Shown one piece after another: positions 9,254 through 31,876 of a DNA stretch of 64,000 nt. The position numbers and the translations under genes were made by a program. How positions within the stretch are numbered: the stretch's first letter is position 1; each line of letters begins with the position of its first letter. The DNA comes from Clostridiales bacterium UBA7568. GTDB taxonomy: Bacteria; Bacillota; Clostridia; Oscillospirales; CAG-272. A model generated the notes under the pieces. It searched no databases, had not been told where the DNA came from, and worked only from the letters and a program-made list of their open reading frames with translations. The DNA is taken from NCBI GenBank assembly GCA_002479075.1, contig DLLG01000004.1:373205-437204 (forward strand), in the 5' to 3' direction.

Positions 9254-9331
<78 letters not shown>

Positions 9332-9333
9332 AA

Positions 9334-9473
9334 CAAAAAACAGCCCGTCGGGCTGTTTTTTTGTTTTCTTTGCGGTAAAGAAAAGGGATTTGAACGGGCT
9401 CGGTAGTGAATGAGGCGCCTGCGGCGCGTCAGAGCCGAGCCTGACCGAGCGGCGGCGAGCCGCGAGAATTCAA
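9334..9473. repeat. A-type ~140-bp repeat, copy 1 (terminator hairpin plus structured core)
   Basis: Matches 14740-14878 except at roughly ten positions. Contains the motif ctcgg-TAGTGAATGA-hairpin-TCAGAG-ccgag at 9399-9439. Confidence 0.9.
9335..9362. terminator. hairpin terminator after tRNA-Met (A run / T run, usable on either strand)
   Basis: aaaaaa-cagcccg-tc-gggctg-ttttttt. Confidence 0.75.
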
Positions 9474-9491
9474 ATCCCACCTCCGCAACCA
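9462..9491 (+). repeat. duplicate of the 3' end of the initiator tRNA (T loop + acceptor 3' strand + CCA)
   Basis: ttcaaatcccacctccgcaacca (9469-9491) is identical to 9309-9331. The preceding 7 nt are similar but cannot form a T stem. Confidence 0.9.
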
Positions 9492-9558
9492 TTGAACAGG
9501 TCCCAACTTTCCGACCACCGTAATACGGAGTCGGCAGTTGGGACTTTCGTTTATATGT

Positions 9559-9759
9559 CTATATGTTTTCAGACTCCGTTTCAAATTGAAGCGGAGTTTT
9601 TATGTCCAATTTTCTGTGCGGACGCTCTTCATTGAAAAAATGAATGTATTCTTTGACGACTGCTTCCAATTTAAGCGGTGCTTGATATATTGCGTGATTG
9701 CGTTCATAGTACTTTATAACGGCATCTTTGAATTCTTGCGTGTGGATTTTGGGTGACAT
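9559..9759 (-). pseudogene. C-terminal remnant of an IS3-family (rve) transposase
   Basis: ..LEAVVKEYIHFFNEERPHRKLDIKTPLQFE resembles the conserved C-terminal tail of IS3 OrfB proteins. The ORF is only 66 aa with no catalytic domain upstream in frame. A long hairpin (9500-9546) follows it. Confidence 0.5.
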
Positions 9760-10259
9760 TTTGACCTCTCGGTGATTAATATATCACACAGGAGAGATAC
9801 TGTCGGTTCAGCAGTTGTAAAAAACAACTCCATAATCAAAAGAGCTTTCTGAGCCAGAATATGTACGATGCTGATCGCACCTTCATACTCTCGCAGAATT
9901 TGTGCAACAATCTGTTGCACAAATTCTATGACAGCATCGTCCGTCAAATGGTGGAATGCATCAAGGTATATGCCAATAAGTACATCGAGGTTATCTTCGG
10001 CGGCGGGTATGCGGTGGAAGAAACGGTGGAATAAGTAAAAAAGCAACCTGTACCGACAAGATGGTCGATACAGATTGCTTTTTTCATATTGGAGCGGTCC
10101 TATATAACGCAAATACTCTCCGGCAACGGTTTGGGTCTTGCCATTAAAAGATAAATTGTGGATCTGCACGGAAAAACGATTGGTATTCCCCAATCTGATA
10201 AAGAAGTATGGTTTATTAGGTGTGGTTGCCTTCGGGGGATAATCAATATACAATATCAA
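9714..10259 (-). pseudogene. 181-aa ORF of unknown origin, probably a gene fragment
   Basis: TTG start with no SD, overlaps the IS3 remnant in another frame, and I recognise no motif. Kept only because a 181-codon ORF in lower-GC DNA is unlikely by chance. Confidence 0.25.
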
Positions 10260-10351
10260 AACCAGTGTAGCATATCGGCGCCTACGCTATGTTTTTCTTC
10301 GTTATATTCTTAAAATTCAGAAAACAGTCAAATTCTATTTTCGAAAATCTA

Positions 10352-10380
10352 TTGACAACCTTCATTGACGATAGTATAAT
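10352..10380 (+). promoter_or_regulatory. consensus promoter of the MarR-ABC exporter operon
   Basis: TTGACA 10352-10357, 17-nt spacer, TATAAT 10375-10380. Confidence 0.7.
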
Positions 10381-10424
10381 AATGAATGTTCTAATATTAG
10401 AGTTTCTATGATTGGAGGGTGAAT

Positions 10425-10892
10425 ATGAATAATTGGAACTTCACAGCGTCCAGGATGTTCAACAGTGCGAACCGATTTATTGAAGCGTATCATACTGCGC
10501 TTCAGCCGATCTGCAAGGATACGGGGCTACCGCCTATGGCTGTTGATATTCTGATGTTTCTTGCAAACAATCCAGACAGCAATACGGCGGGAGATATCTG
10601 CCGGTGTCGCGGACTGAAAACCGGAATCGTATCGGTACATGTTGACCGACTTGTTAATGAGGGACTGCTTCTGCGGCAGGATATTCCGGGTGACCGGAGA
10701 AAAACACGGCTCGTCTGCACGGAAGCAGCAAACGGCGTCATTGAAAAGGGTCGCGAGGTGCAAAAGAACTTCGCGCAAAGGCTACTCGTCGGGATGTCGG
10801 ACACGGATATTGAAGTATTCCAACACTGCTTGACCGTTCTCGGCGAAAATATTGACGAGATCCGCAAAAACGGGTTTTCAACGAAAGAATAA
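10425..10892 (+). CDS. MarR family transcriptional regulator
   Basis: ATG 10425 follows GGAGGG. Winged-HTH region PMAVDILMFLANNPDSNTAGDICRCRGLKTGIVSVHVDRLVNEGLLLRQDIPGDRRKTRL. Confidence 0.85.
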   Translation: MNNWNFTASRMFNSANRFIEAYHTALQPICKDTGLPPMAVDILMFLANNPDSNTAGDICRCRGLKTGIVSVHVDRLVNEGLLLRQDIPGDRRKTRLVCTEAANGVIEKGREVQKNFAQRLLVGMSDTDIEVFQHCLTVLGENIDEIRKNGFSTKE

Positions 10893-10908
10893 AAAATAGG
10901 AGATAACT

Positions 10909-12663
10909 ATGTTCAAGTTACTGAAAAATATGCGCCGGAAAGAAAAGATGATGGCGTTGATTTGTCTTTTATTTGTTGTGGTTCAGGTTTACTTTGACCT
11001 GCGTCTTCCGGATTATATGACCGAGCTGACTATGCTCATCAAAACCTCCGGCACCACATCGGATATTGTGAATGTCGGGTTGAAAATGCTCGGTTGCACG
11101 ATGGCGAGCGCCGTACTTGCGATCGCCTGCGGCTTTCTTGCCGCAAAGACCGCATCCGGCTTCAGCTTTGCCGTGCGAGACAAACTGTTCCGCCATGTCA
11201 TTGACATCGGCAGCGAGGAAATGCAAGACTTTTCCATTCCAAGCCTGATTACCCGAACCACCAACGACATCACACAGATTCAGATGATTGTTGCAATGGG
11301 ACTGCAAATGATGATAAAAGCACCCATTATGGCAGTATGGGCAATCATCAAGATTCTCGGAAAGAGCTGGGAACTTTCTGCCGTAACTGCCGCATTCGTT
11401 GTGGTGCTGTTCGTTACGGTCTTGCTGATTATGAGCACTTGTATTCCGCGTTTCCGCCTTGTGCAGAAAATGACCGATAAAATCAACCGCGTTGCCCGTG
11501 AAAACCTGACTGGCATCAATGTGGTACATGCATTCAACGCCGAAGATTTTCAGAACGAAAAGTTTGACGGTCCGAGCCGCGGCATGATGGAGCTGCAAAT
11601 GAAAAACCAAAAGCTGTTTGCGCTGGTGCAGCCGACGATGATGCTTGGAATGAACGGGCTGGCGCTGGCGATCTATTGGCTCGGTGCGGCGCTCGTGAGC
11701 AATATCGCGGTCACCGATATGAGCGCCCGGCTTACGATGTTCAGCGAAGTGTTGGTATTCAGCACCTATGCGACCTATGTTGTGATGTCGTTCATGATGC
11801 TGGCGATGATCTTCATGCTGCTGCCGCAGGCACAGGTATCTGCGGAGCGTATCAATGAGGTGCTGAATCGCAGCGCCTCGATCCGTGAGGGCAGCATCCG
11901 AAACGGGAAAGAAACCGGAACGGTTGAATTTCGGAATGTGTCTTTTCGCTATCCCCATGCATCCGAGGATGAACTGACCGATATTGATTTTAAGGTGAAC
12001 AAGGGTGAAACCTTGGCGATCATCGGTGCGACCGGCAGCGGCAAGACCACCTTGGTCAGCCTGATTCCGCGCTTTTATGACGCAACAAATGGCGAGGTGT
12101 TGGTAGACGGCGTGAATGTCAAAGACTATACATTTGACGCACTGTACGATAAGCTGGGATATGTCACGCAGAAAGCGGTTCTGTTCTCCGGGACCATACA
12201 GGATAATGTGCTTTTCGGTGAAAGTGCCGACGATGCGGACGGGACAAGGCTGAACGACGCAATCGAGCTTTCGCAGGCAAAGGAATTCGTTGACAAATTG
12301 CCTGAAGGTACGGAATACGAGATCGCACAGCTCGGCCGCAATGTGTCCGGCGGTCAGAAACAGCGCCTTTCCATTGCCCGTGCGCTTGCACGAAAGCCCG
12401 AAATTCTGATCTTTGACGACTCGTTCTCGGCACTTGACTATCGAACCGATGCAAAGCTGCGCGAGGGCTTGAATGAACAGCTTCACGGAACCACAAAGAT
12501 CATCGTCGCTCAGCGTATCAGCACAATCCGCCACGCAGACAGAATCATCGTTCTTGACCGCGGTGAGATGGTCGGAATGGGTACACACGAAGAACTGATG
12601 CAGAACTGCGAGGTCTACCGTGAAATCGCCACATCGCAGCTCAGCGCATCCGAGCTTGCATAA
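10909..12663 (+). CDS. ABC transporter ATP-binding/permease protein (half-transporter, multidrug-exporter type)
   Basis: N-terminal 6-TM domain. Walker A GATGSGKTT, signature VSGGQKQRLSIARAL, Walker B ILIFDDSFSALD. Confidence 0.9.
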   Translation: MFKLLKNMRRKEKMMALICLLFVVVQVYFDLRLPDYMTELTMLIKTSGTTSDIVNVGLKMLGCTMASAVLAIACGFLAAKTASGFSFAVRDKLFRHVIDIGSEEMQDFSIPSLITRTTNDITQIQMIVAMGLQMMIKAPIMAVWAIIKILGKSWELSAVTAAFVVVLFVTVLLIMSTCIPRFRLVQKMTDKINRVARENLTGINVVHAFNAEDFQNEKFDGPSRGMMELQMKNQKLFALVQPTMMLGMNGLALAIYWLGAALVSNIAVTDMSARLTMFSEVLVFSTYATYVVMSFMMLAMIFMLLPQAQVSAERINEVLNRSASIREGSIRNGKETGTVEFRNVSFRYPHASEDELTDIDFKVNKGETLAIIGATGSGKTTLVSLIPRFYDATNGEVLVDGVNVKDYTFDALYDKLGYVTQKAVLFSGTIQDNVLFGESADDADGTRLNDAIELSQAKEFVDKLPEGTEYEIAQLGRNVSGGQKQRLSIARALARKPEILIFDDSFSALDYRTDAKLREGLNEQLHGTTKIIVAQRISTIRHADRIIVLDRGEMVGMGTHEELMQNCEVYREIATSQLSASELA

Positions 12664-12676
12664 GGAGGGATGAAAA

Positions 12677-14455
12677 ATGAAGAAAAAAGACAATCAAAAA
12701 GGCATCCGTTCCGCCATTCCGAGAATATCCGGCTATTTGCGTTCCAGCATGGGAATCATTATCGTCGCCTTAATCCTTGCGGCACTCAGTGCCGTTATGA
12801 CAATCATCGGTCCTGATAAGATCGGTCGGATTGCAACGCTGATGTCGGATGGTATTACCGGCAGTATCGACCTTGCGGCAATCGCAAAAATCGGTATTTC
12901 TCTTGCAGTCATCTATATACTCAGCGCACTTTTCAGCTTTATTCAGCACTACACGATGTCTGTCGTCACTCTGAAAATGTCCTACCGTATGCGCGGCGAG
13001 CTGTCTGAGAAGATCAACAAAGTACCGCAGAAGTATTTCAACACCACCTCGCAGGGTGACATTCTCAGCCGCATCACAAACGATGTGTCCACTTTGCAGC
13101 AGGGGCTGACGAACAGTATGCCGACGATCATCAGCGCCGCAACGCAGTTTGTCGGCTGTCTGATCATGATGTTCGTCACCGAATGGCGGCTTGCCCTCAT
13201 TTCCATCGGCGTGACCGTTATCGGTATGTTCCTGACAGTGCTTATCATGTCGAGATCACAGCGTTTCTTCGCAGCGCGGCAAAAGAGCCTTGGTGCGCTG
13301 AACGGGTATGTGGAGGAAATGTATTCCGGTCATGAGGTTGTGCGGATCAGCCGTGCCGAGCGTAAGGTCTGTGCAAAGTTTGACACGCTCAATGCCGCGG
13401 TATACGACGCAAACTGGAAGTCGCAGTTTCTCTCCGGCATGATGCAGCCGCTCATGAACATTATCGGCAACATTGCCTATGTCGCTGTCTGCGTCTTCGG
13501 TTCGGTTCTTGCCATAAACGGCACGATTGAGTTCGGCGTGATCGTTTCCTTCATCCTCTATGTTCGCCTGTTTACCTCGCCGCTGACGCAAATTGCTCAG
13601 GGCATGACCAATATGCAGACAGCATCTGCCTCCGCACACCGCATTTTCGACTTTCTTGAAAGCGAAGAAATGCCCGATGAAAGAGGGAAAACGACCGCTC
13701 TTACCGATGTTCACGGCACGGTCAGCTTTGAGCACGTCCGCTTCAGCTACCCCGATACGCCCGATAAGATAATTATCAAGGATTTCTCCGCCAATGTGCA
13801 TCCCGGTCAGAAGGTTGCTATCGTCGGCCCGACCGGTGCCGGAAAAACAACGATGGTCAACCTGCTGATGCGCTTCTTTGAGATCAACAGCGGAACAATC
13901 AAAATTGACGGTGTTCCGATCTCCGAAATGAGCCGTGAAAATGTGCATAAGTTGTTCAGCATGGTTTTGCAGGACACATGGCTCTTTGAGGGAACGGTCA
14001 GAGAAAACCTCGTCTATAACATGGAGGGTATTACCGACGCGCAGCTTGAAGAAGTCTGCCGAGCCTGCGGACTGGACAAATTCATTCACACGCTGCCGCA
14101 GGGTTTTGACACCGTTCTTTCTGAAAGCGCTAGCATCTCCGCCGGACAAAAGCAGCTTCTCACCATCGCCCGCGCTATGTTACAGAATGCGCCGATGCTC
14201 ATTCTTGACGAAGCCACTTCTTCGGTCGATACCCGTACCGAGCTTCTGATCCAGCGGGCAATGGATGAACTCACGAAAGGGCGCACAAGCTTTGTGATCG
14301 CACACCGCCTTTCCACCATCAAAAACGCCGACCTGATTCTTGTTATGTGCGACGGTGATGTGATCGAGAGCGGAACGCACGAGGAACTGATGCGGCGCGG
14401 CGGATTCTACGCCGATCTTTACAACAGCCAGTTTGAGGATAAAATTGCTTCGTAA
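12677..14455 (+). CDS. ABC transporter ATP-binding/permease protein (heterodimer partner)
   Basis: RBS AAGGAGGG. Walker A GPTGAGKTT, signature ISAGQKQLLTIARAM, Walker B MLILDEATSSVD. Confidence 0.9.
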   Translation: MKKKDNQKGIRSAIPRISGYLRSSMGIIIVALILAALSAVMTIIGPDKIGRIATLMSDGITGSIDLAAIAKIGISLAVIYILSALFSFIQHYTMSVVTLKMSYRMRGELSEKINKVPQKYFNTTSQGDILSRITNDVSTLQQGLTNSMPTIISAATQFVGCLIMMFVTEWRLALISIGVTVIGMFLTVLIMSRSQRFFAARQKSLGALNGYVEEMYSGHEVVRISRAERKVCAKFDTLNAAVYDANWKSQFLSGMMQPLMNIIGNIAYVAVCVFGSVLAINGTIEFGVIVSFILYVRLFTSPLTQIAQGMTNMQTASASAHRIFDFLESEEMPDERGKTTALTDVHGTVSFEHVRFSYPDTPDKIIIKDFSANVHPGQKVAIVGPTGAGKTTMVNLLMRFFEINSGTIKIDGVPISEMSRENVHKLFSMVLQDTWLFEGTVRENLVYNMEGITDAQLEEVCRACGLDKFIHTLPQGFDTVLSESASISAGQKQLLTIARAMLQNAPMLILDEATSSVDTRTELLIQRAMDELTKGRTSFVIAHRLSTIKNADLILVMCDGDVIESGTHEELMRRGGFYADLYNSQFEDKIAS

Positions 14456-14706
14456 AATCGAATTGAAACACAGTCAAGGCGACATAGGCTCACAGATGCT
14501 CCCTGTGAGTCTAACGAAAAAAACAAGCGTTGAGACCGACGCAAACCTTGGATATCGGCACTTGCTTTTTCCTTTTGTTCAAAGGAAGTTGAGATATCTT
14601 TTTCGGTTGACTGCGTTTTTCCGCCTTTCTTATTTCTGCCGATCAAAATCAGTGAAAAAAGTATCAAAAAGCACCGAAATCCCTTATATCATAAGGATTT
14701 TCAGGT

Positions 14707-14740
14707 GATATCTTTTTCAGCGGTGCGATACAAACAAAGC
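14707..14740. repeat. E-box, copy 1 (34-nt conserved box preceding a terminator hairpin)
   Basis: gatatctttttcagcggtgcgatacaaacaaagc compared with 17341-17375 gatatctttttcagtagcgcgattcaaacaaaagc. A third partial copy, gagatatctttttcgg, lies near 14600. Confidence 0.8.
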
Positions 14741-14878
14741 AAAAAACAGCCCGTCGGGCTGTTTTTTGTTTTCTTTACCGCAAAGAAAAGGGATTTGAAC
14801 GGGCTCGGTAGTGAATGAGGCGCCTGTGGCGTGTCAGAGCCGAGCCTGACTGAGCGGCGGCGAGCCGCGAGAATTCAA
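14740..14878. repeat. A-type ~140-bp repeat, copy 2
   Basis: Direct repeat of 9334-9473. The small hairpin ctttaccgcaaag (14773-14785) is the exact reverse complement of ctttgcggtaaag (9368-9380). The motif is at 14804-14844. Confidence 0.9.
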
Positions 14879-14908
14879 CCCCTTTTCAAATTTTAACTTG
14901 TTACATAT

Positions 14909-15050
14909 GTGCTTCTGTTTTGCGTGCGATGGGTATGAATGCACAAAGACAGGGTTATGAGCCCGAAGGGCGAGTAACTCGGAGGGGGAGGCGGTAGTGA
15001 ATGACAGCCTTGGAGGGCTGTCAGAGCCGCCGAACCGACCGCAGCATTTT
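14909..15050. repeat. D-type ~142-bp repeat, copy 1
   Basis: Matches 17391-17534 with about five differences. Carries ggcgg-TAGTGAATGA-hairpin-TCAGAG-ccgcc (14990-15031). Carries gggttatgagcccga (14952-14966), the exact reverse complement of the initiator tRNA anticodon arm at 9281-9295. Confidence 0.9.
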
Positions 15051-15073
15051 CCTATGCAGAGAAAATGCAAGAA

Positions 15074-15192
15074 CGTGAGGTTCAAATCCTTCTCGCCTGC
15101 GGGCTCGGTCACCGTACTGCTCTAAAGTGCCAAAGGGCACTTTATTCACCACCGTACGGCCGTTCCGCCTTGCTCCACTACCTCCGCAACCA
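15074..15192 (+). pseudogene. split copy of the initiator-tRNA 3' half (T arm ... acceptor 3' strand + CCA) interrupted by about 84 nt
   Basis: cgtgaggttcaaatcc (15074-15089) is identical to 9302-9317. acctccgcaacca (15180-15192) is identical to 9319-9331. The intervening 15090-15173 contains the hairpin aaagtgcc-aaag-ggcacttt. Confidence 0.8.
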
Positions 15193-15226
15193 AAAAATCC
15201 TCACTCATATGAGTGAGGATTTTTTT
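15192..15226. terminator. strong bidirectional terminator
   Basis: aaaaaa-tcctcactc-atat-gagtgagga-tttttt. Lies downstream of the split tRNA fragment (+) and of the hydrolase gene (-). Confidence 0.8.
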
Positions 15227-15300
15227 ATTACTCTTTGTTTTTCGCTCCTTTTAGCGCCCGTTTTTCTGAGGCGGAAAGTGCGATGATTTTACGCACCTTT

Positions 15301-16317
15301 TCATCGTTCTCCTTTAATAAAATTGGCAAAGTTGGAAATCAGCTCGCTTGGAAAATCAACTTGAGTATATATTGACGCAGGGTCTGTGGTGTCGATCCTA
15401 TATCCGAAATGACTTATATCGTCGTATACACATATGGATACGTTTGCTGAATCAGAGAAAAGCACTTGCCACAGCTCAATATCTTCATCGAAGGATTGCT
15501 TGTCAGATTTACTGTTAATGATAAGTGTTTTTATATTAGCGTCAGCAATGTTTTTGGCGGTATCCATTTGATTATAGGACACCCAATAATAATCGCTTGC
15601 GCTGTAATAGTAGTATCCTTTTGTAGAGATAGCTGTTACATTTTTAGCGGCTGTTGCATAAGCGATATAGGACTCTTTATTGGCAGGATCAAGCGCAGAA
15701 TATTGATTGCAAGCGATATCTGCAAGATGCCGTGCAGAGCTGTTGAATAGAATGATTCCGTTAATGTCTTCGATGCTTGCAGCAAGCTCGGCAGCAATCT
15801 GTCCTCCAAGGCTGTGACCGAGTAAATACAATCCCGAAACATTTTGTGATTTCAAGTATTCAACGGCGATATTACAATCATCGAGATACTCTTCTTCGAT
15901 GCCGCACTTTATATCGAATTCGGCAGTATAGCTGAAGGTTCTTTTGTCAACTCGCAGAGAATTGATGCCTTCTTTAGCCAGCCCATCGGCAATATCCTTA
16001 AACGGCTTCAATACGCCGAGAGTTTCATCATAATCATTTGGACCGGAGCCCGCAATTAAAAGCACCGCAGGATGCACATTTCCGTCGTTAATATAGGTAT
16101 AAGCAGCGTTTAACTTATAGCCGTCACTTTTTAAAACAAATTTCTTTTCTTCAATACTGTTGCTTTGGGGGGGAGTACCTTGATCGGGAATATTTGTTGA
16201 TTTATCTGCGCTCGACTCGGTATTATCACTTGTTTCTTTCGTATCGGGCACTTCTGTATTGCATCCGGACAGAACAAAGATACACAAAAGTAAGATAATA
16301 GCTATGAATTTTTTCAT
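15301..16317 (-). CDS. alpha/beta hydrolase lipoprotein
   Basis: ATG 16317 with RBS GAGGTG. Signal peptide MKKFIAIILLLCIFVLSGC carries a lipobox. Nucleophile elbow GHSLGG. Confidence 0.8.
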   Translation of the reverse strand: MKKFIAIILLLCIFVLSGCNTEVPDTKETSDNTESSADKSTNIPDQGTPPQSNSIEEKKFVLKSDGYKLNAAYTYINDGNVHPAVLLIAGSGPNDYDETLGVLKPFKDIADGLAKEGINSLRVDKRTFSYTAEFDIKCGIEEEYLDDCNIAVEYLKSQNVSGLYLLGHSLGGQIAAELAASIEDINGIILFNSSARHLADIACNQYSALDPANKESYIAYATAAKNVTAISTKGYYYYSASDYYWVSYNQMDTAKNIADANIKTLIINSKSDKQSFDEDIELWQVLFSDSANVSICVYDDISHFGYRIDTTDPASIYTQVDFPSELISNFANFIKGER

Positions 16318-16322
16318 TCGTC

Positions 16323-17024
16323 TCACCTCGTATTCAAGTCATAATATCCAAGCCAAAGTCCGTCAATTTTCCCACCGTGGAATACGTATGTGATTTTAAG
16401 ACCAAGTTTTGAATATCTGACAAAGCAATATAATTTGTTTGAAAATCTATCATCCGCAACTGTTCTGTCAACCGAAAGATATTCACCAAGTGGGGCTAAT
16501 GTATCCTTACGCACTACAATATATACATCTTTCGGCATATATTCTGCCAAGTGAGGACTTAAATACTCGTAGAGAGTATCGGTAGCTCCGCTTAAAATAG
16601 CGTCTGTGCAAATTCGCGCGATTTCTTTTTCTTCGGTATTCATTACGGAAGAAAGTTGCCAATCCTCAGCAAAGATGTCTTTACCGGATTCAAGCGCGGA
16701 TAAAGCTTCATTCAAGAGGTTGATTTCGCGTATGCGAGATTCAATAGAGGCGTATATTTCCGCACGTTTGGAAAGGACTGCATCTTTCAAATCTATTCCT
16801 TTGGTTTGCAACTCTGCAATTGCCTTTACGGATAGTCCCAATGTACGAAGAACAAGAACATTTTTAATACGAGAAATTTGTTTTTCGGTATATTGTCGGC
16901 GAGATGAGATCCCAACGGTCGTACTTTGAATGATACCTTTTTCTTCATAAAAGCGAAGTGTTCTTGATGTGGTGTCAAGCATCTTGCAAACTTCTGTAAT
17001 ATCGTATAGAGATTTTTGATACAT
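16323..17024 (-). CDS. MerR family transcriptional regulator
   Basis: N-terminal HTH YDITEVCKMLDTTSRTLRFYEEKGII, followed by a coiled-coil and an effector domain. RBS GGGGGTGAGGA. Confidence 0.85.
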   Translation of the reverse strand: MYQKSLYDITEVCKMLDTTSRTLRFYEEKGIIQSTTVGISSRRQYTEKQISRIKNVLVLRTLGLSVKAIAELQTKGIDLKDAVLSKRAEIYASIESRIREINLLNEALSALESGKDIFAEDWQLSSVMNTEEKEIARICTDAILSGATDTLYEYLSPHLAEYMPKDVYIVVRKDTLAPLGEYLSVDRTVADDRFSNKLYCFVRYSKLGLKITYVFHGGKIDGLWLGYYDLNTR

Positions 17025-17041
17025 ATCCTCACCCCCTCTGT

Positions 17042-17072
17042 ATTATATCACTTGACGCAGCGTCAATGTCAA
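17042..17072 (-). promoter_or_regulatory. MerR-type promoter with 19-bp spacer filled by a perfect palindrome
   Basis: On the minus strand, TTGACA (17072-17067), a 19-nt spacer, then TATAAT (17047-17042). The spacer contains TTGACGC-t-GCGTCAA (17052-17066), a 7-1-7 palindrome. Confidence 0.7.
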
Positions 17073-17340
17073 GTGAAAATATTACTTTAATAGAGCTTTC
17101 AAGTATAGAAAAACTATTGACAATACCGAACCTTCGCTAAAATGAAAAAATAGTAAGCCGGCGCCTGCTTCCGGTACTATTATATCACAAAGTAGGGAGG
17201 CATTCCTGGGATATATGAGATTAACTGCTGGCTAAAAAACATAGCAAAAGGACAATTGACGCCGTGGATAAAGCGTGCGAGGGCTGTGTAGCGAACCTAA
17301 AAATGGCAGGTATTCGGTAATGCCTTCCGGATTTGAAAGC

Positions 17341-17375
17341 GATATCTTTTTCAGTAGCGCGATTCAAACAAAAGC
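17341..17375. repeat. E-box, copy 2, followed by hairpin 17371-17398
   Basis: See 14707-14740. The hairpin here is aaagcacc-gtcgaaaggga-ggtgcttt. It differs in sequence from the 14741-14767 hairpin but sits in the same position. Confidence 0.8.
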
Positions 17376-17390
17376 ACCGTCGAAAGGGAG

Positions 17391-17534
17391 GTGCTTTTGT
17401 TTTGCGTGCGAGAGGGTATGAATGCACAAAGACAGGGTTATGAGCCCGAATGGCGAGTAACTCGGAGGGGGAGGCGGTAGTGAATGACAGCCTTGGAGGG
17501 CTGTCAGAGCCGCCGAACCGACTGCAGCATTTTT
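17391..17534. repeat. D-type repeat, copy 2
   Basis: Direct repeat of 14909-15050. The motif is at 17473-17514 and the antisense anticodon-arm segment at 17435-17449. Confidence 0.9.
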
Positions 17535-17574
17535 CTCAAATCTCTTGACAAACGAACGGTAGGTAGGTATAATA
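17528..17574 (+). promoter_or_regulatory. consensus promoter block, copy 1 (shared with 31830-31876)
   Basis: TTGACA 17545-17550, spacer aacgaacggtaggtagg (17 nt), TATAAT 17568-17573. About 47 nt are nearly identical to the block upstream of the YoaP-like gene. Confidence 0.75.
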
Positions 17575-31829: not shown

Positions 31830-31876
31830 CATTTTCTCAAAACCTATTGACAAACGAACGGTAGGTAGCTATAATA
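31830..31876 (+). promoter_or_regulatory. consensus promoter block, copy 2
   Basis: TTGACA 31847-31852, spacer aacgaacggtaggtagc, TATAAT 31870-31875. Near-identical to 17528-17574. Confidence 0.75.

Follow-up and report, generated by a model that had tools for sequence, protein, structure and literature searches.

We describe here an array of short structured repeats and accessory genes that lies behind a tRNA gene in a 64,000-nt stretch of DNA (the window) from contig DLLG01000004.1 of Clostridiales bacterium UBA7568. The source genome (G000) is a 1.83-Mb, 98.7%-complete metagenome-assembled genome (MAG), and its ten congeners are labeled G001 to G010. The array spans positions 9254 to 17536 of the window, and the order of its parts is the one given by the initial annotation: tRNA-Met, repeat A1, cassette 1, box, A2, D1, a split tRNA piece, cassette 2, box, D2 and a TetR promoter. 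Gene content likewise agreed with what had been proposed, as Pfam assigned the tail of an IS3 transposase, MarR with two ABC half-transporters, an alpha/beta hydrolase with MerR, and TetR with TraX. The whole array is anchored on an initiator-type tRNA-Met(CAT) gene at 9254 to 9331 on the plus strand, called by ARAGORN and matched by the Rfam tRNA model at 58.8 bits; the last 23 nt of this gene (9309 to 9331) are the template of direct copies that we term S2. Terminator T1 of the tRNA operon follows at 9334 to 9366. It is bidirectional, was called on both strands, and forms the center of a long quasi-palindrome made of the tRNA 3' end, T1 and an inverted tRNA 3' piece.

The first repeat element, A1, occupies 9385 to 9468 on the plus strand, where it was recognized by nhmmer (E = 1e-24) as well as by the fold and covariation described below. 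It reads, in order, the 5' strand of helix P1 (GGGATTTGAA, antisense of the tRNA-Met T-loop), helix P2, the internal loop TAGTGAA/GA, the P3 hairpin, GACCGAGC, the P4 hairpin and GAGAA. Directly after it lies its S2 (9469 to 9491, plus strand), which repeats the last 23 nt of tRNA-Met, T-loop through CCA, in direct orientation and without a mismatch (100%); among 41 tRNAs, the adjacent tRNA-Met was the best match (23/23). Cassette 1 starts directly past the CCA of this copy. Its left end (9492 to 10090) is damaged and holds an IS3-family end with a transposase tail (9559 to 9759, minus strand; Pfam rve_2/rve_3) together with the 3'-terminal remains of a large serine recombinase gene (about 9840 to 10035, plus strand). 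Their counterparts in G010, an intact IS3 and the 3' end of a gene for a 566-aa serine recombinase, are 94 to 96% identical. The cargo, a MarR regulator and two ABC exporter half-transporters by Pfam, lies at 10419 to 14455 on the plus strand. The cassette ends with box 1 (14695 to 14738, plus strand, core ATATCTTTTTCAGCGGTGCGATACA), which was delimited by repeat and genus searches, as was box 2.

Unit A2 (14740 to 14893, plus strand) abuts box 1 and is 95% identical to T1-A1. It consists of terminator T1' (14740 to 14771), the element proper (14790 to 14873) and a rewritten S2 (14874 to 14893), which is now the complement of the A2 element's own 5' flank, a multi-base palindrome extension. 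The small hairpin that separates terminator from element differs between the two A copies by an inversion of its loop, reading TTTTCTTT-GCGGT-AAAGAAAA at 9364 to 9384 and TTTTCTTT-ACCGC-AAAGAAAA at 14769 to 14789; two tRNA-Val terminators elsewhere in the genome (G000:C8:162730 and 162895) also differ by a loop inversion, GAT versus ATC.

D1 (14909 to 15053, plus strand) comprises the 3' half of a T2-type terminator (14909 to 14922), an inverted tRNA-Met fragment, a module of the type that we call core-only (14990 to 15031) and a tail. Its S2 (15074 to 15192, plus strand) is in two pieces, the tRNA-Met T-stem and T-loop at 15074 to 15089 and the acceptor 3' strand with CCA at 15180 to 15192. 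What splits them, in the T-loop, is E (15090 to 15179, minus strand), a degenerate core-only copy in reverse orientation that was recognized by a minus-strand nhmmer match and by its fold. Cassette 2 (15192 to 17024, minus strand) starts past the CCA of this S2 with the bidirectional terminator T3 (15192 to 15225) and carries a lipoprotein-type alpha/beta hydrolase (15301 to 16326) and a MerR regulator (16323 to 17024). A conserved noncoding unit (17130 to 17340, plus strand; 76 to 77% identity in G009 and G004) leads into box 2 (17329 to 17372, plus strand, core ATATCTTTTTCAGTAGCGCGATTCA), with which the cassette ends. Last comes unit D2 (17376 to 17536, plus strand), which joins terminator T2 (17376 to 17400) to D (17391 to 17536); the unit is cut short and runs directly into the TetR promoter block.

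A search of the genome with an A-type hidden Markov model (HMM) returned 13 loci, with both D cores (E = 6e-8 and 9e-8) and the reversed copy E among the matches. By this measure D and A are homologous and have the internal-loop motif in common, as had been suggested. Nine of the 13 loci lie directly 3' of a tRNA or tmRNA gene with no cassette; in the whole-genome ARAGORN annotation they start 41 to 57 nt past the gene on the same strand, and the gap is a terminator. The genes concerned are tmRNA, Glu, Met, Val, Arg(ACG), Ser(GGA), Arg(CCG), Gly(CCC) and Pro(CGG). Across the genome, A-type copies are mostly away from accessory-gene boundaries, which tells against the initial idea that the repeats bracket such genes. 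The same placement recurs in relatives, where the element starts 41 to 51 nt past the tRNA end.

The family was found in 15 of 41 relatives, and seven of the ten congeners carry it with 6 to 17 matches per genome. Many copies are at contig ends, and arrays of 2 to 5 units are present in G002, G004, G006, G007 and G009; tandem units without cargo stand behind tRNA-Glu and tRNA-Val in the present genome and recur often in relatives. In species representatives, a pattern scan located the family in at least 120 stretches, and among the matches listed nearly all come from gut Clostridia MAGs (Oscillospiraceae, Acutalibacteraceae, Christensenellales and Lachnospiraceae) of humans and ruminants. Six IMG/VR contigs carry the family. 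A, D, the unit and the box had no match in 50,697 phage records, and a phage origin was set aside for this reason. Rfam returned no family at E ≤ 1 over the window region, nor at the gathering score or E ≤ 5 on the relatives, and literature searches retrieved no described tRNA-linked bacterial repeat of this kind.

Copies follow the sequence of the tRNA behind which they stand. In P1, the 5' strand corresponds to the T-loop and T-stem of the local tRNA in antisense, and the repeat ends read GGGATTYGAA...TTCRAATCCC. This rule also holds where the T-loop is not palindromic (tmRNA, GGAGAATCGAA; Glu, GGGAATCGAA; Val, GGGCTCGAA; Pro, GAGGATTTGAA), and P1 was therefore rejected as a T-loop target-site duplication, since its 5' strand is antisense and not sense at these four. 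The 3' strand of P1 runs on into S2, the direct copy of the local tRNA from T-loop to CCA. Matches are 23/23 at Met, 22/22 plus a copy of the terminator at Gly, and 19 at Gln; over many genomes, S2 agrees with the local tRNA at no fewer than 18 of 24 positions at 14 of 35 tRNA-adjacent loci, representing 11 tRNA identities. The tRNA T-loop, the terminator and the antisense strand form one long quasi-palindrome, which at tRNA-Val consists of TTCGAGCCCCCTCGTTTCCACCA, the terminator and the reverse complement of TTCGAGCCCGCCTCTGACCA. A second terminator lies 3' of S2 at the Gly, Arg(ACG) and Val loci and at tRNA-Met of G004, so several loci have a dual-terminator position 3' of a stable-RNA gene. 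In the GTDB loci, 18 of 32 assessable P1-containing matches were tRNA-adjacent versus 4 of 80 core-only ones. We also noted a stretch, TTTGACTCTCT(C/G)CC(G)CCA followed by AAAC, that resembles a displaced tRNA 3' fragment; it precedes the solo box of G001 (L033, G001:C117, upstream of the TetR promoter), and a stretch of the same type stands before a tRNA-less family copy at G000:C10:53480-53510.

Secondary structure was derived from an alignment of 25 full copies, which supports four helices. The element is closed by P1, P2 and P3 stack on either side of the invariant asymmetric loop TAGTGAA/GA, and P4 forms a short hairpin. Cells of the alignment were paired in 91% of cases compared with 28 to 42% when partners were slid, double-sided changes occur in 18 of 31 pairs, and none of 500 shuffles reached such covariation. 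A1 and A2 are predicted to fold into the junction (z = -4.0 and -6.1, the latter with an extended P1), and D is predicted to fold only its P2/P3 arm (z about -2). Some copies lie nested within another copy's P3 hairpin, and the reversed copy E interrupts a T-loop.

The core-only class (loci L045-L169; for example L166 at 4431, 9069 and 12765, and L061 at 1044 and 5027) is without tRNA linkage. These copies have GGTAGCGAAGCGGC on the 5' side, which contains a GCGAAGC mini-hairpin motif, and on the 3' side GACCGAGCCGCAGCGAGAC, another hairpin and then TGA(T)GAGGGG. They lie inside a larger C-rich/G-rich outer stem, occur several per contig, IMG/VR viral contigs included, and have no Rfam match. 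No orientation bias to flanking open reading frames was seen (upstream, 33 same versus 24 opposite).

D1 and D2 form a direct repeat of about 145 nt, as first described, with 5 substitutions and a 1-nt indel in a global alignment and a spacing of 2483 nt. The window repeat search resolved it into 14931 to 15053 against 17414 to 17536 (123 nt, 98%) and 14909 to 14929 against 17391 to 17411 (95%), and whole-genome BLAST found full-length D only at D1 and D2. The left edge of D1 falls inside the 3' arm of a T2-type terminator copy whose 5' arm is missing. D holds a perfect 15-nt inverted copy of the tRNA-Met anticodon arm (14952 to 14966 in D1, 15/15 positions). Its score was 30, and 1000 shuffles compared with all 40 tRNAs reached 29 at most; the best tRNA was again the adjacent tRNA-Met. 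A reading of the left part of D as a whole inverted pseudo-tRNA was not retained, as the statistics are solid for the 15-nt anticodon arm only and the remainder is suggestive by eye. The D core, of the core-only type, lies 3' of this arm, and D1 then runs via a small hairpin into the tRNA-Met 3' copy that E interrupts.

At the other end, the right edge of D2 (17536) has 8 to 9 nt of microhomology (CATTTTYC) with the TetR promoter block, and this overlap suggests a microhomology-mediated junction. Given the terminator loop on the left and the promoter microhomology on the right, the limits of D1/D2 homology are two independent truncations and not a recombination site. D is probably a lineage-specific composite unit, in which an inverted tRNA-Met copy reaching the anticodon arm was later trimmed at both outer ends. 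The promoter block itself is common to 17528 to 17574 and 31830 to 31876, before TetR and GNAT genes, and begins CATTTTCTC, overlapping the last bases of D2, GCAGCATTTTTC.

The initial annotation had treated D as a second family whose copies define the cassette. This view did not survive comparison, as D1/D2 homology stops at two unrelated points, G010 carries cassette 2 (94% identity) without D1 on its left, G001 has the box, the terminator and the TetR promoter without D2 between them, and the family is a resident one tied to tRNA genes and not to accessory genes.

The box was correctly recognized as occurring twice (44 nt, 82% identity in the window repeat search), each time followed by a terminator-like hairpin in the series A-tract, hairpin, T-run. 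The first hairpin (14740 to 14768) is a predicted terminator in the terminator scan; the second (17376 to 17400, GCACC..GGTGC) was missed by the scanner for the sole reason of its 11-nt loop, and in G010 the orthologous hairpin has a perfect stem of 9 bp closed by a GAAA loop. The box proved separable from the repeat, G001 having the box alone. It is restricted to the genus, with 8 copies in 5 of 11 genus genomes and none elsewhere among the 41 relatives. Boxes 1 and 2 end at the junction CA-AAC, exactly where the CCA end of a tRNA would abut a terminator. Most likely, the box is the right end of accessory-gene islands and does not belong to the repeat. A decayed tRNA 3' end was rejected as its origin, as inspection revealed no significant similarity to tRNA-Met or other tRNAs. 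No inverted-repeat partner of the box was found at the left ends of cassettes 1 and 2, which are occupied by the IS3 remnant and terminator T3, respectively.

Both cassettes carry consensus promoters and their own regulators, and both vary between strains. The cargo of cassette 1 was found at >72% identity in none of the ten congeners. Cassette 2 had been suspected of variable presence and was found only in G010, where it lies in another context with an intact IS3 inserted in the box. At the tRNA-Met locus of G004, the order is tRNA-Met, terminator, A and S2, then 1.85 kb with a MerR-like gene and the box, then terminator, A and S2 again. Both S2 copies there are perfect, and the two A copies differ in their P3 and P2 sequences, from which it follows that they are older neighbors and not a duplication made on insertion.

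The clearest island lies 29 kb upstream of the window at tRNA-Gln (G000:C2:343554-344735). This 1.18-kb segment has a single GNAT acetyltransferase gene with its own promoter, sits exactly between the tRNA-Gln CCA and AAAC relative to the empty site of G001, and shows a 21/23 inverted repeat between its left end and the box. A left module like that of the GNAT island is present 3' of tRNA-Met in G010 and of tRNA-Gln in G007 and G009; at the GNAT locus itself, a second, partly deleted left module was noted 3' of the S2 copy. In G009, tRNA-Gln is followed by an XRE-regulator island that ends in a unit of the 17130-17340 type and the box, and then by terminator, A and S2. This unit is, in G009:C4 and G004:C38, the divergent upstream region of an XRE-family regulator gene, its 5' end being ribosome-binding site and start; in the window it adjoins the MerR gene instead.

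Two further observations concern the islands. The IS3 that is present as a remnant at 9492 to 9760, abutting the S2 CCA, is intact in G010 (L031:12439-14800, 378-aa transposase), inserted in the box immediately after GATATCTTTT, and in G004:C17 the box is adjoined by an IS3-end-like sequence, TTCCGACCACCATA. IS3 may target the box region. A hairpin module, GGC(A/G)GAAAGTGCG-ATGATTTTA-CGCACCTT(C)TGCC, recurs inside or next to small islands, at 15262 to 15300 of the window, at G000:C2:344640-344680 and 344955-344995, and at L031:10355-10395.

Candidate partner enzymes were surveyed as well. PF01797 (the Y1 HUH transposase, RAYT) had no match in G000 or in the seven other carrier genomes of the genus; its matches were confined to G003, G005 and G008, all of which are without the repeat. 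IS200-type Y1 transposase genes and the repeat family are thus mutually exclusive among the 11 congeneric genomes. In the 98.7%-complete genome, neither TnpB (PF07282) nor a reverse transcriptase was found, and a retroelement origin was rejected on the latter ground. BLAST against the genome revealed no longer element containing the repeat, and no autonomous relative of it emerged from the genome or the relatives. The genome encodes six tyrosine and three serine recombinases, and two of the tyrosine enzymes are next to tRNA genes.

We put the probability at roughly 0.6 that D and A are one family of about 100-nt hairpin repeats behind tRNA and tmRNA genes, with islands inserted between units. 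In a complete unit, a terminator is followed by the T-loop-to-3' region of the local tRNA in inverted form, the conserved three-helix core and the direct copy S2, often with another terminator after it. The tRNA end is repeated by S2 and the terminator, which would let units multiply in tandem by unequal recombination. Small accessory-gene islands would insert at or next to the junction of CCA and terminator, in the tRNA gene or in an S2 copy, and an island landing past an internal S2 would come to sit between two units, as with cassette 1 (A1...A2) and cassette 2 (D1...D2). The box would then abut the terminator at the position formerly held by the tRNA end. S2 copies may accordingly serve as secondary attachment sites, and a serine recombinase, of which remnants lie adjacent, is a candidate mover of the islands. 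We favor the view that the family acts at the DNA level, where folded copies would spread and be remodeled through template-switching at hairpins and through recombination, and that it is not an RNA gene; the nesting of copies, the loop inversion, the rewriting of S2 in A2, the position of D2 between a terminator and a promoter and the lack of orientation bias in core-only copies favor such behavior.

Several points weigh against this reading. The inverted repeat between box and left end is present in one complete island only, and the window cassettes have lost a left partner or never had one. Insertion points are not uniform, as the island in G004:C38 lies inside a terminator stem and not at the CCA end. 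No recombinase or transposase is tied to the repeat or to the islands. P2 and P4 contain G-T but no A-C mismatches (14 versus 0), which would also fit a transcribed RNA, as would the conserved asymmetric loop together with the fixed orientation to the tRNA. The repeats that flank the cassettes could stem from Campbell-type homologous integration of a circle with one unit. Finally, the source is a MAG, in which repeat-rich regions may be mis-joined.

Among the alternatives, a derivation of the units from tyrosine-integrase elements is doubtful but has the most in its favor. The units would be micro-islands or scars of elements that cross over in the T-loop of the tRNA (for D, in its anticodon loop). 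On this view S2 would represent the displaced tRNA fragment (attR), the attP arms would survive as the first terminator, the antisense strand and the core, and integrase or accessory proteins would bind the conserved core motifs. A regenerated tRNA, an insert and a direct T-loop-to-CCA copy are the hallmark by which tDNA (tRNA-gene) islands are mapped (Islander, PMC4383910), and T-loop attB sites are known (PMC1762012). The locus specificity of S2 at 11 tRNA identities, the segment in D that would be expected for an anticodon-loop class of site, and the six tyrosine recombinases, two of them beside tRNA genes, point the same way. Yet the inserts measure only 115 to 140 bp and have no integrase, one core would have to serve integrases of >11 tRNA specificities, and the GAGAA to the left of S2 is no T-stem mimic. 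Compensatory changes in hairpins, nesting, and core-only copies away from tRNAs (76/80) are unexpected for attP arms, and no full-length element carrying the core was found among the 50,697 phage records.

It is unlikely that the core is a structured noncoding RNA, either read behind the tRNA gene or transcribed from the opposite strand into a shared bidirectional terminator, with the asymmetric loop as a protein-binding, k-turn-like motif. Covariation in all four helices, the invariance of the internal loop and of the junction strands, the constant orientation behind tRNA genes, the mismatch pattern of P2 and P4, and the second terminator past S2 at Gly, Arg(ACG), Val and G004-Met would all suit such a gene, for which there is a precedent (PMC8144298). 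The first terminators, however, are strong (6 to 8 GC-rich pairs and T7-8), D2 stands between terminator and promoter, core-only copies have neither an orientation preference to neighboring genes nor a conserved promoter, copies nest in each other and invert, and no Rfam family appeared even at E ≤ 5. A hammerhead-like three-way junction (CUGA..GA / GAGAA) was considered and rejected: subtypes do not conserve the C and U of CUGA, the third strand has GAGAA where a hammerhead core has an invariant GAAA, and no model matched.

Less likely still is that the unit is a new tRNA-gene-associated element that makes spare tRNA 3' ends, arising and spreading by hairpin template-switching or through an unrecognized structure-specific recombinase, so that the spare ends would be decoys or secondary attachment sites for islands and phages. 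Spare tRNA 3' ends are kept perfect at several loci. If true, such an element would be a built-in landing pad with a terminal stem programmed by the local tRNA, where cargo accumulates without disrupting a functional gene.

That D (and A) repeats are functional boundaries of mobile cassettes, which would be excised and inserted by copy-to-copy recombination or would make the duplication on integration, is improbable: direct repeats of 117 to 146 nt with 95 to 98% identity do flank both strain-variable cassettes and are good substrates for RecA-mediated deletion, but the unrelated truncation points of D1/D2, cassette 2 without D1 in G010, the divergent flanking A copies of G004 (hence no insertion-made duplication), the GNAT island at tRNA-Gln with a unit on one side only and the many family copies that flank nothing all speak against it.

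Integration hot spots behind tRNA genes are the main route by which accessory genes enter bacteria, and the hot spot described here has its own repeated, structured architecture. This architecture would account for the piling up of unrelated drug-response cassettes (MarR-ABC exporter, MerR-hydrolase, MerR-like, GNAT, XRE) behind the same tRNAs across a whole clade of uncultured gut Clostridia. We know of no transposition or integration mechanism that accounts for a repeat whose closing stem copies the local tRNA in both orientations, and the repeat offers a concrete handle on a new recombination route or a new RNA. On the practical side, the units break MAG assemblies, many copies being at contig ends, and can mislead the annotation of cassette boundaries.

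Several known systems were compared with the family. Miniature inverted-repeat transposable elements were rejected because P1 varies by locus with the local tRNA, the flanking duplication is a 20- to 65-nt tRNA end with or without terminator, and there is no autonomous relative. An IS200/IS605-derived PATE or a TnpB omega-RNA remnant was likewise rejected, since PF01797, PF07282 and a longer element containing the repeat are all missing. Integron attC arrays are similar in that small cargo units are separated by structured, covarying hairpin repeats. However, the repeat ends (GGGATTYGAA...TTCRAATCCC) lack R''/R' (RYYYAAC/GTTRRRY) cores, the cassettes are not promoterless but have their own promoters and regulators, most repeats are without cargo, and the arrays are anchored on tRNA genes and not on an intI-attI platform, so an integron was also rejected. 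The rtT repeats of Escherichia coli tyrT and the dual-terminator small RNAs rrA, rrB and rrF (PMC8144298) resemble the family as stable-RNA 3'-end units between successive terminators that expand by unequal recombination. Those are single-locus in one species, whereas the present repeats, known from sequence alone, are dispersed over >11 tRNA identities and many genera and have a conserved core.

REP/REPIN/BIME, BOX, RUP, Correia and ERIC elements are alike in being about 100 nt, multi-copy and intergenic, with compensatory changes in their hairpins, and also in the modular nesting, the frequent place just past genes or terminators and the tandem clusters. GTAG occurs next to hairpins in GGTAGTGAATGA and, in core-only copies, in GGTAGCGAAGCG, and a GTAG-type tetranucleotide before a short imperfect palindrome is a mark of REP systems, but the architecture is a three-helix junction, not a simple REP or REP doublet. 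In contrast to REP-type repeats, the terminal stem here is templated by the local tRNA T-loop with no fixed inverted repeat, each unit has the tRNA 3' end repeated directly behind it, and none of the 8 genus genomes that carry the repeat has the defining RAYT/Y1 transposase (PF01797), for which reason a REP/RAYT system was rejected.

With tDNA islands, the family has in common an intact tRNA followed by a distant direct copy of its 3' end from the T-loop (anticodon arm for D), the tandem accretion of cargo behind one tRNA, and strain-variable cargo. Islands in tRNA and tmRNA genes with a displaced 3' fragment were reportedly described by Williams in 2002. A displaced 3' copy is present here at Met (23/23), Gly (22/22 plus terminator) and Gln (19). 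An integrase inside the segment is not: cassettes 1 and 2 hold only MarR/ABC and MerR/hydrolase genes, besides the 3' remnant of a recombinase and the IS3 tail. The basic unit is moreover about 115 to 140 bp without integrase, has an extra inverted tRNA piece and a conserved structured core, and the cargo islands end at the junction of CCA and terminator and not inside the tRNA. Islander catalogs tDNA islands with displaced tRNA fragments (PMC4383910). Overall, the family is closest to structured intergenic repeats and to tDNA islands, and of the features that define the latter it possesses the displaced tRNA fragment only.

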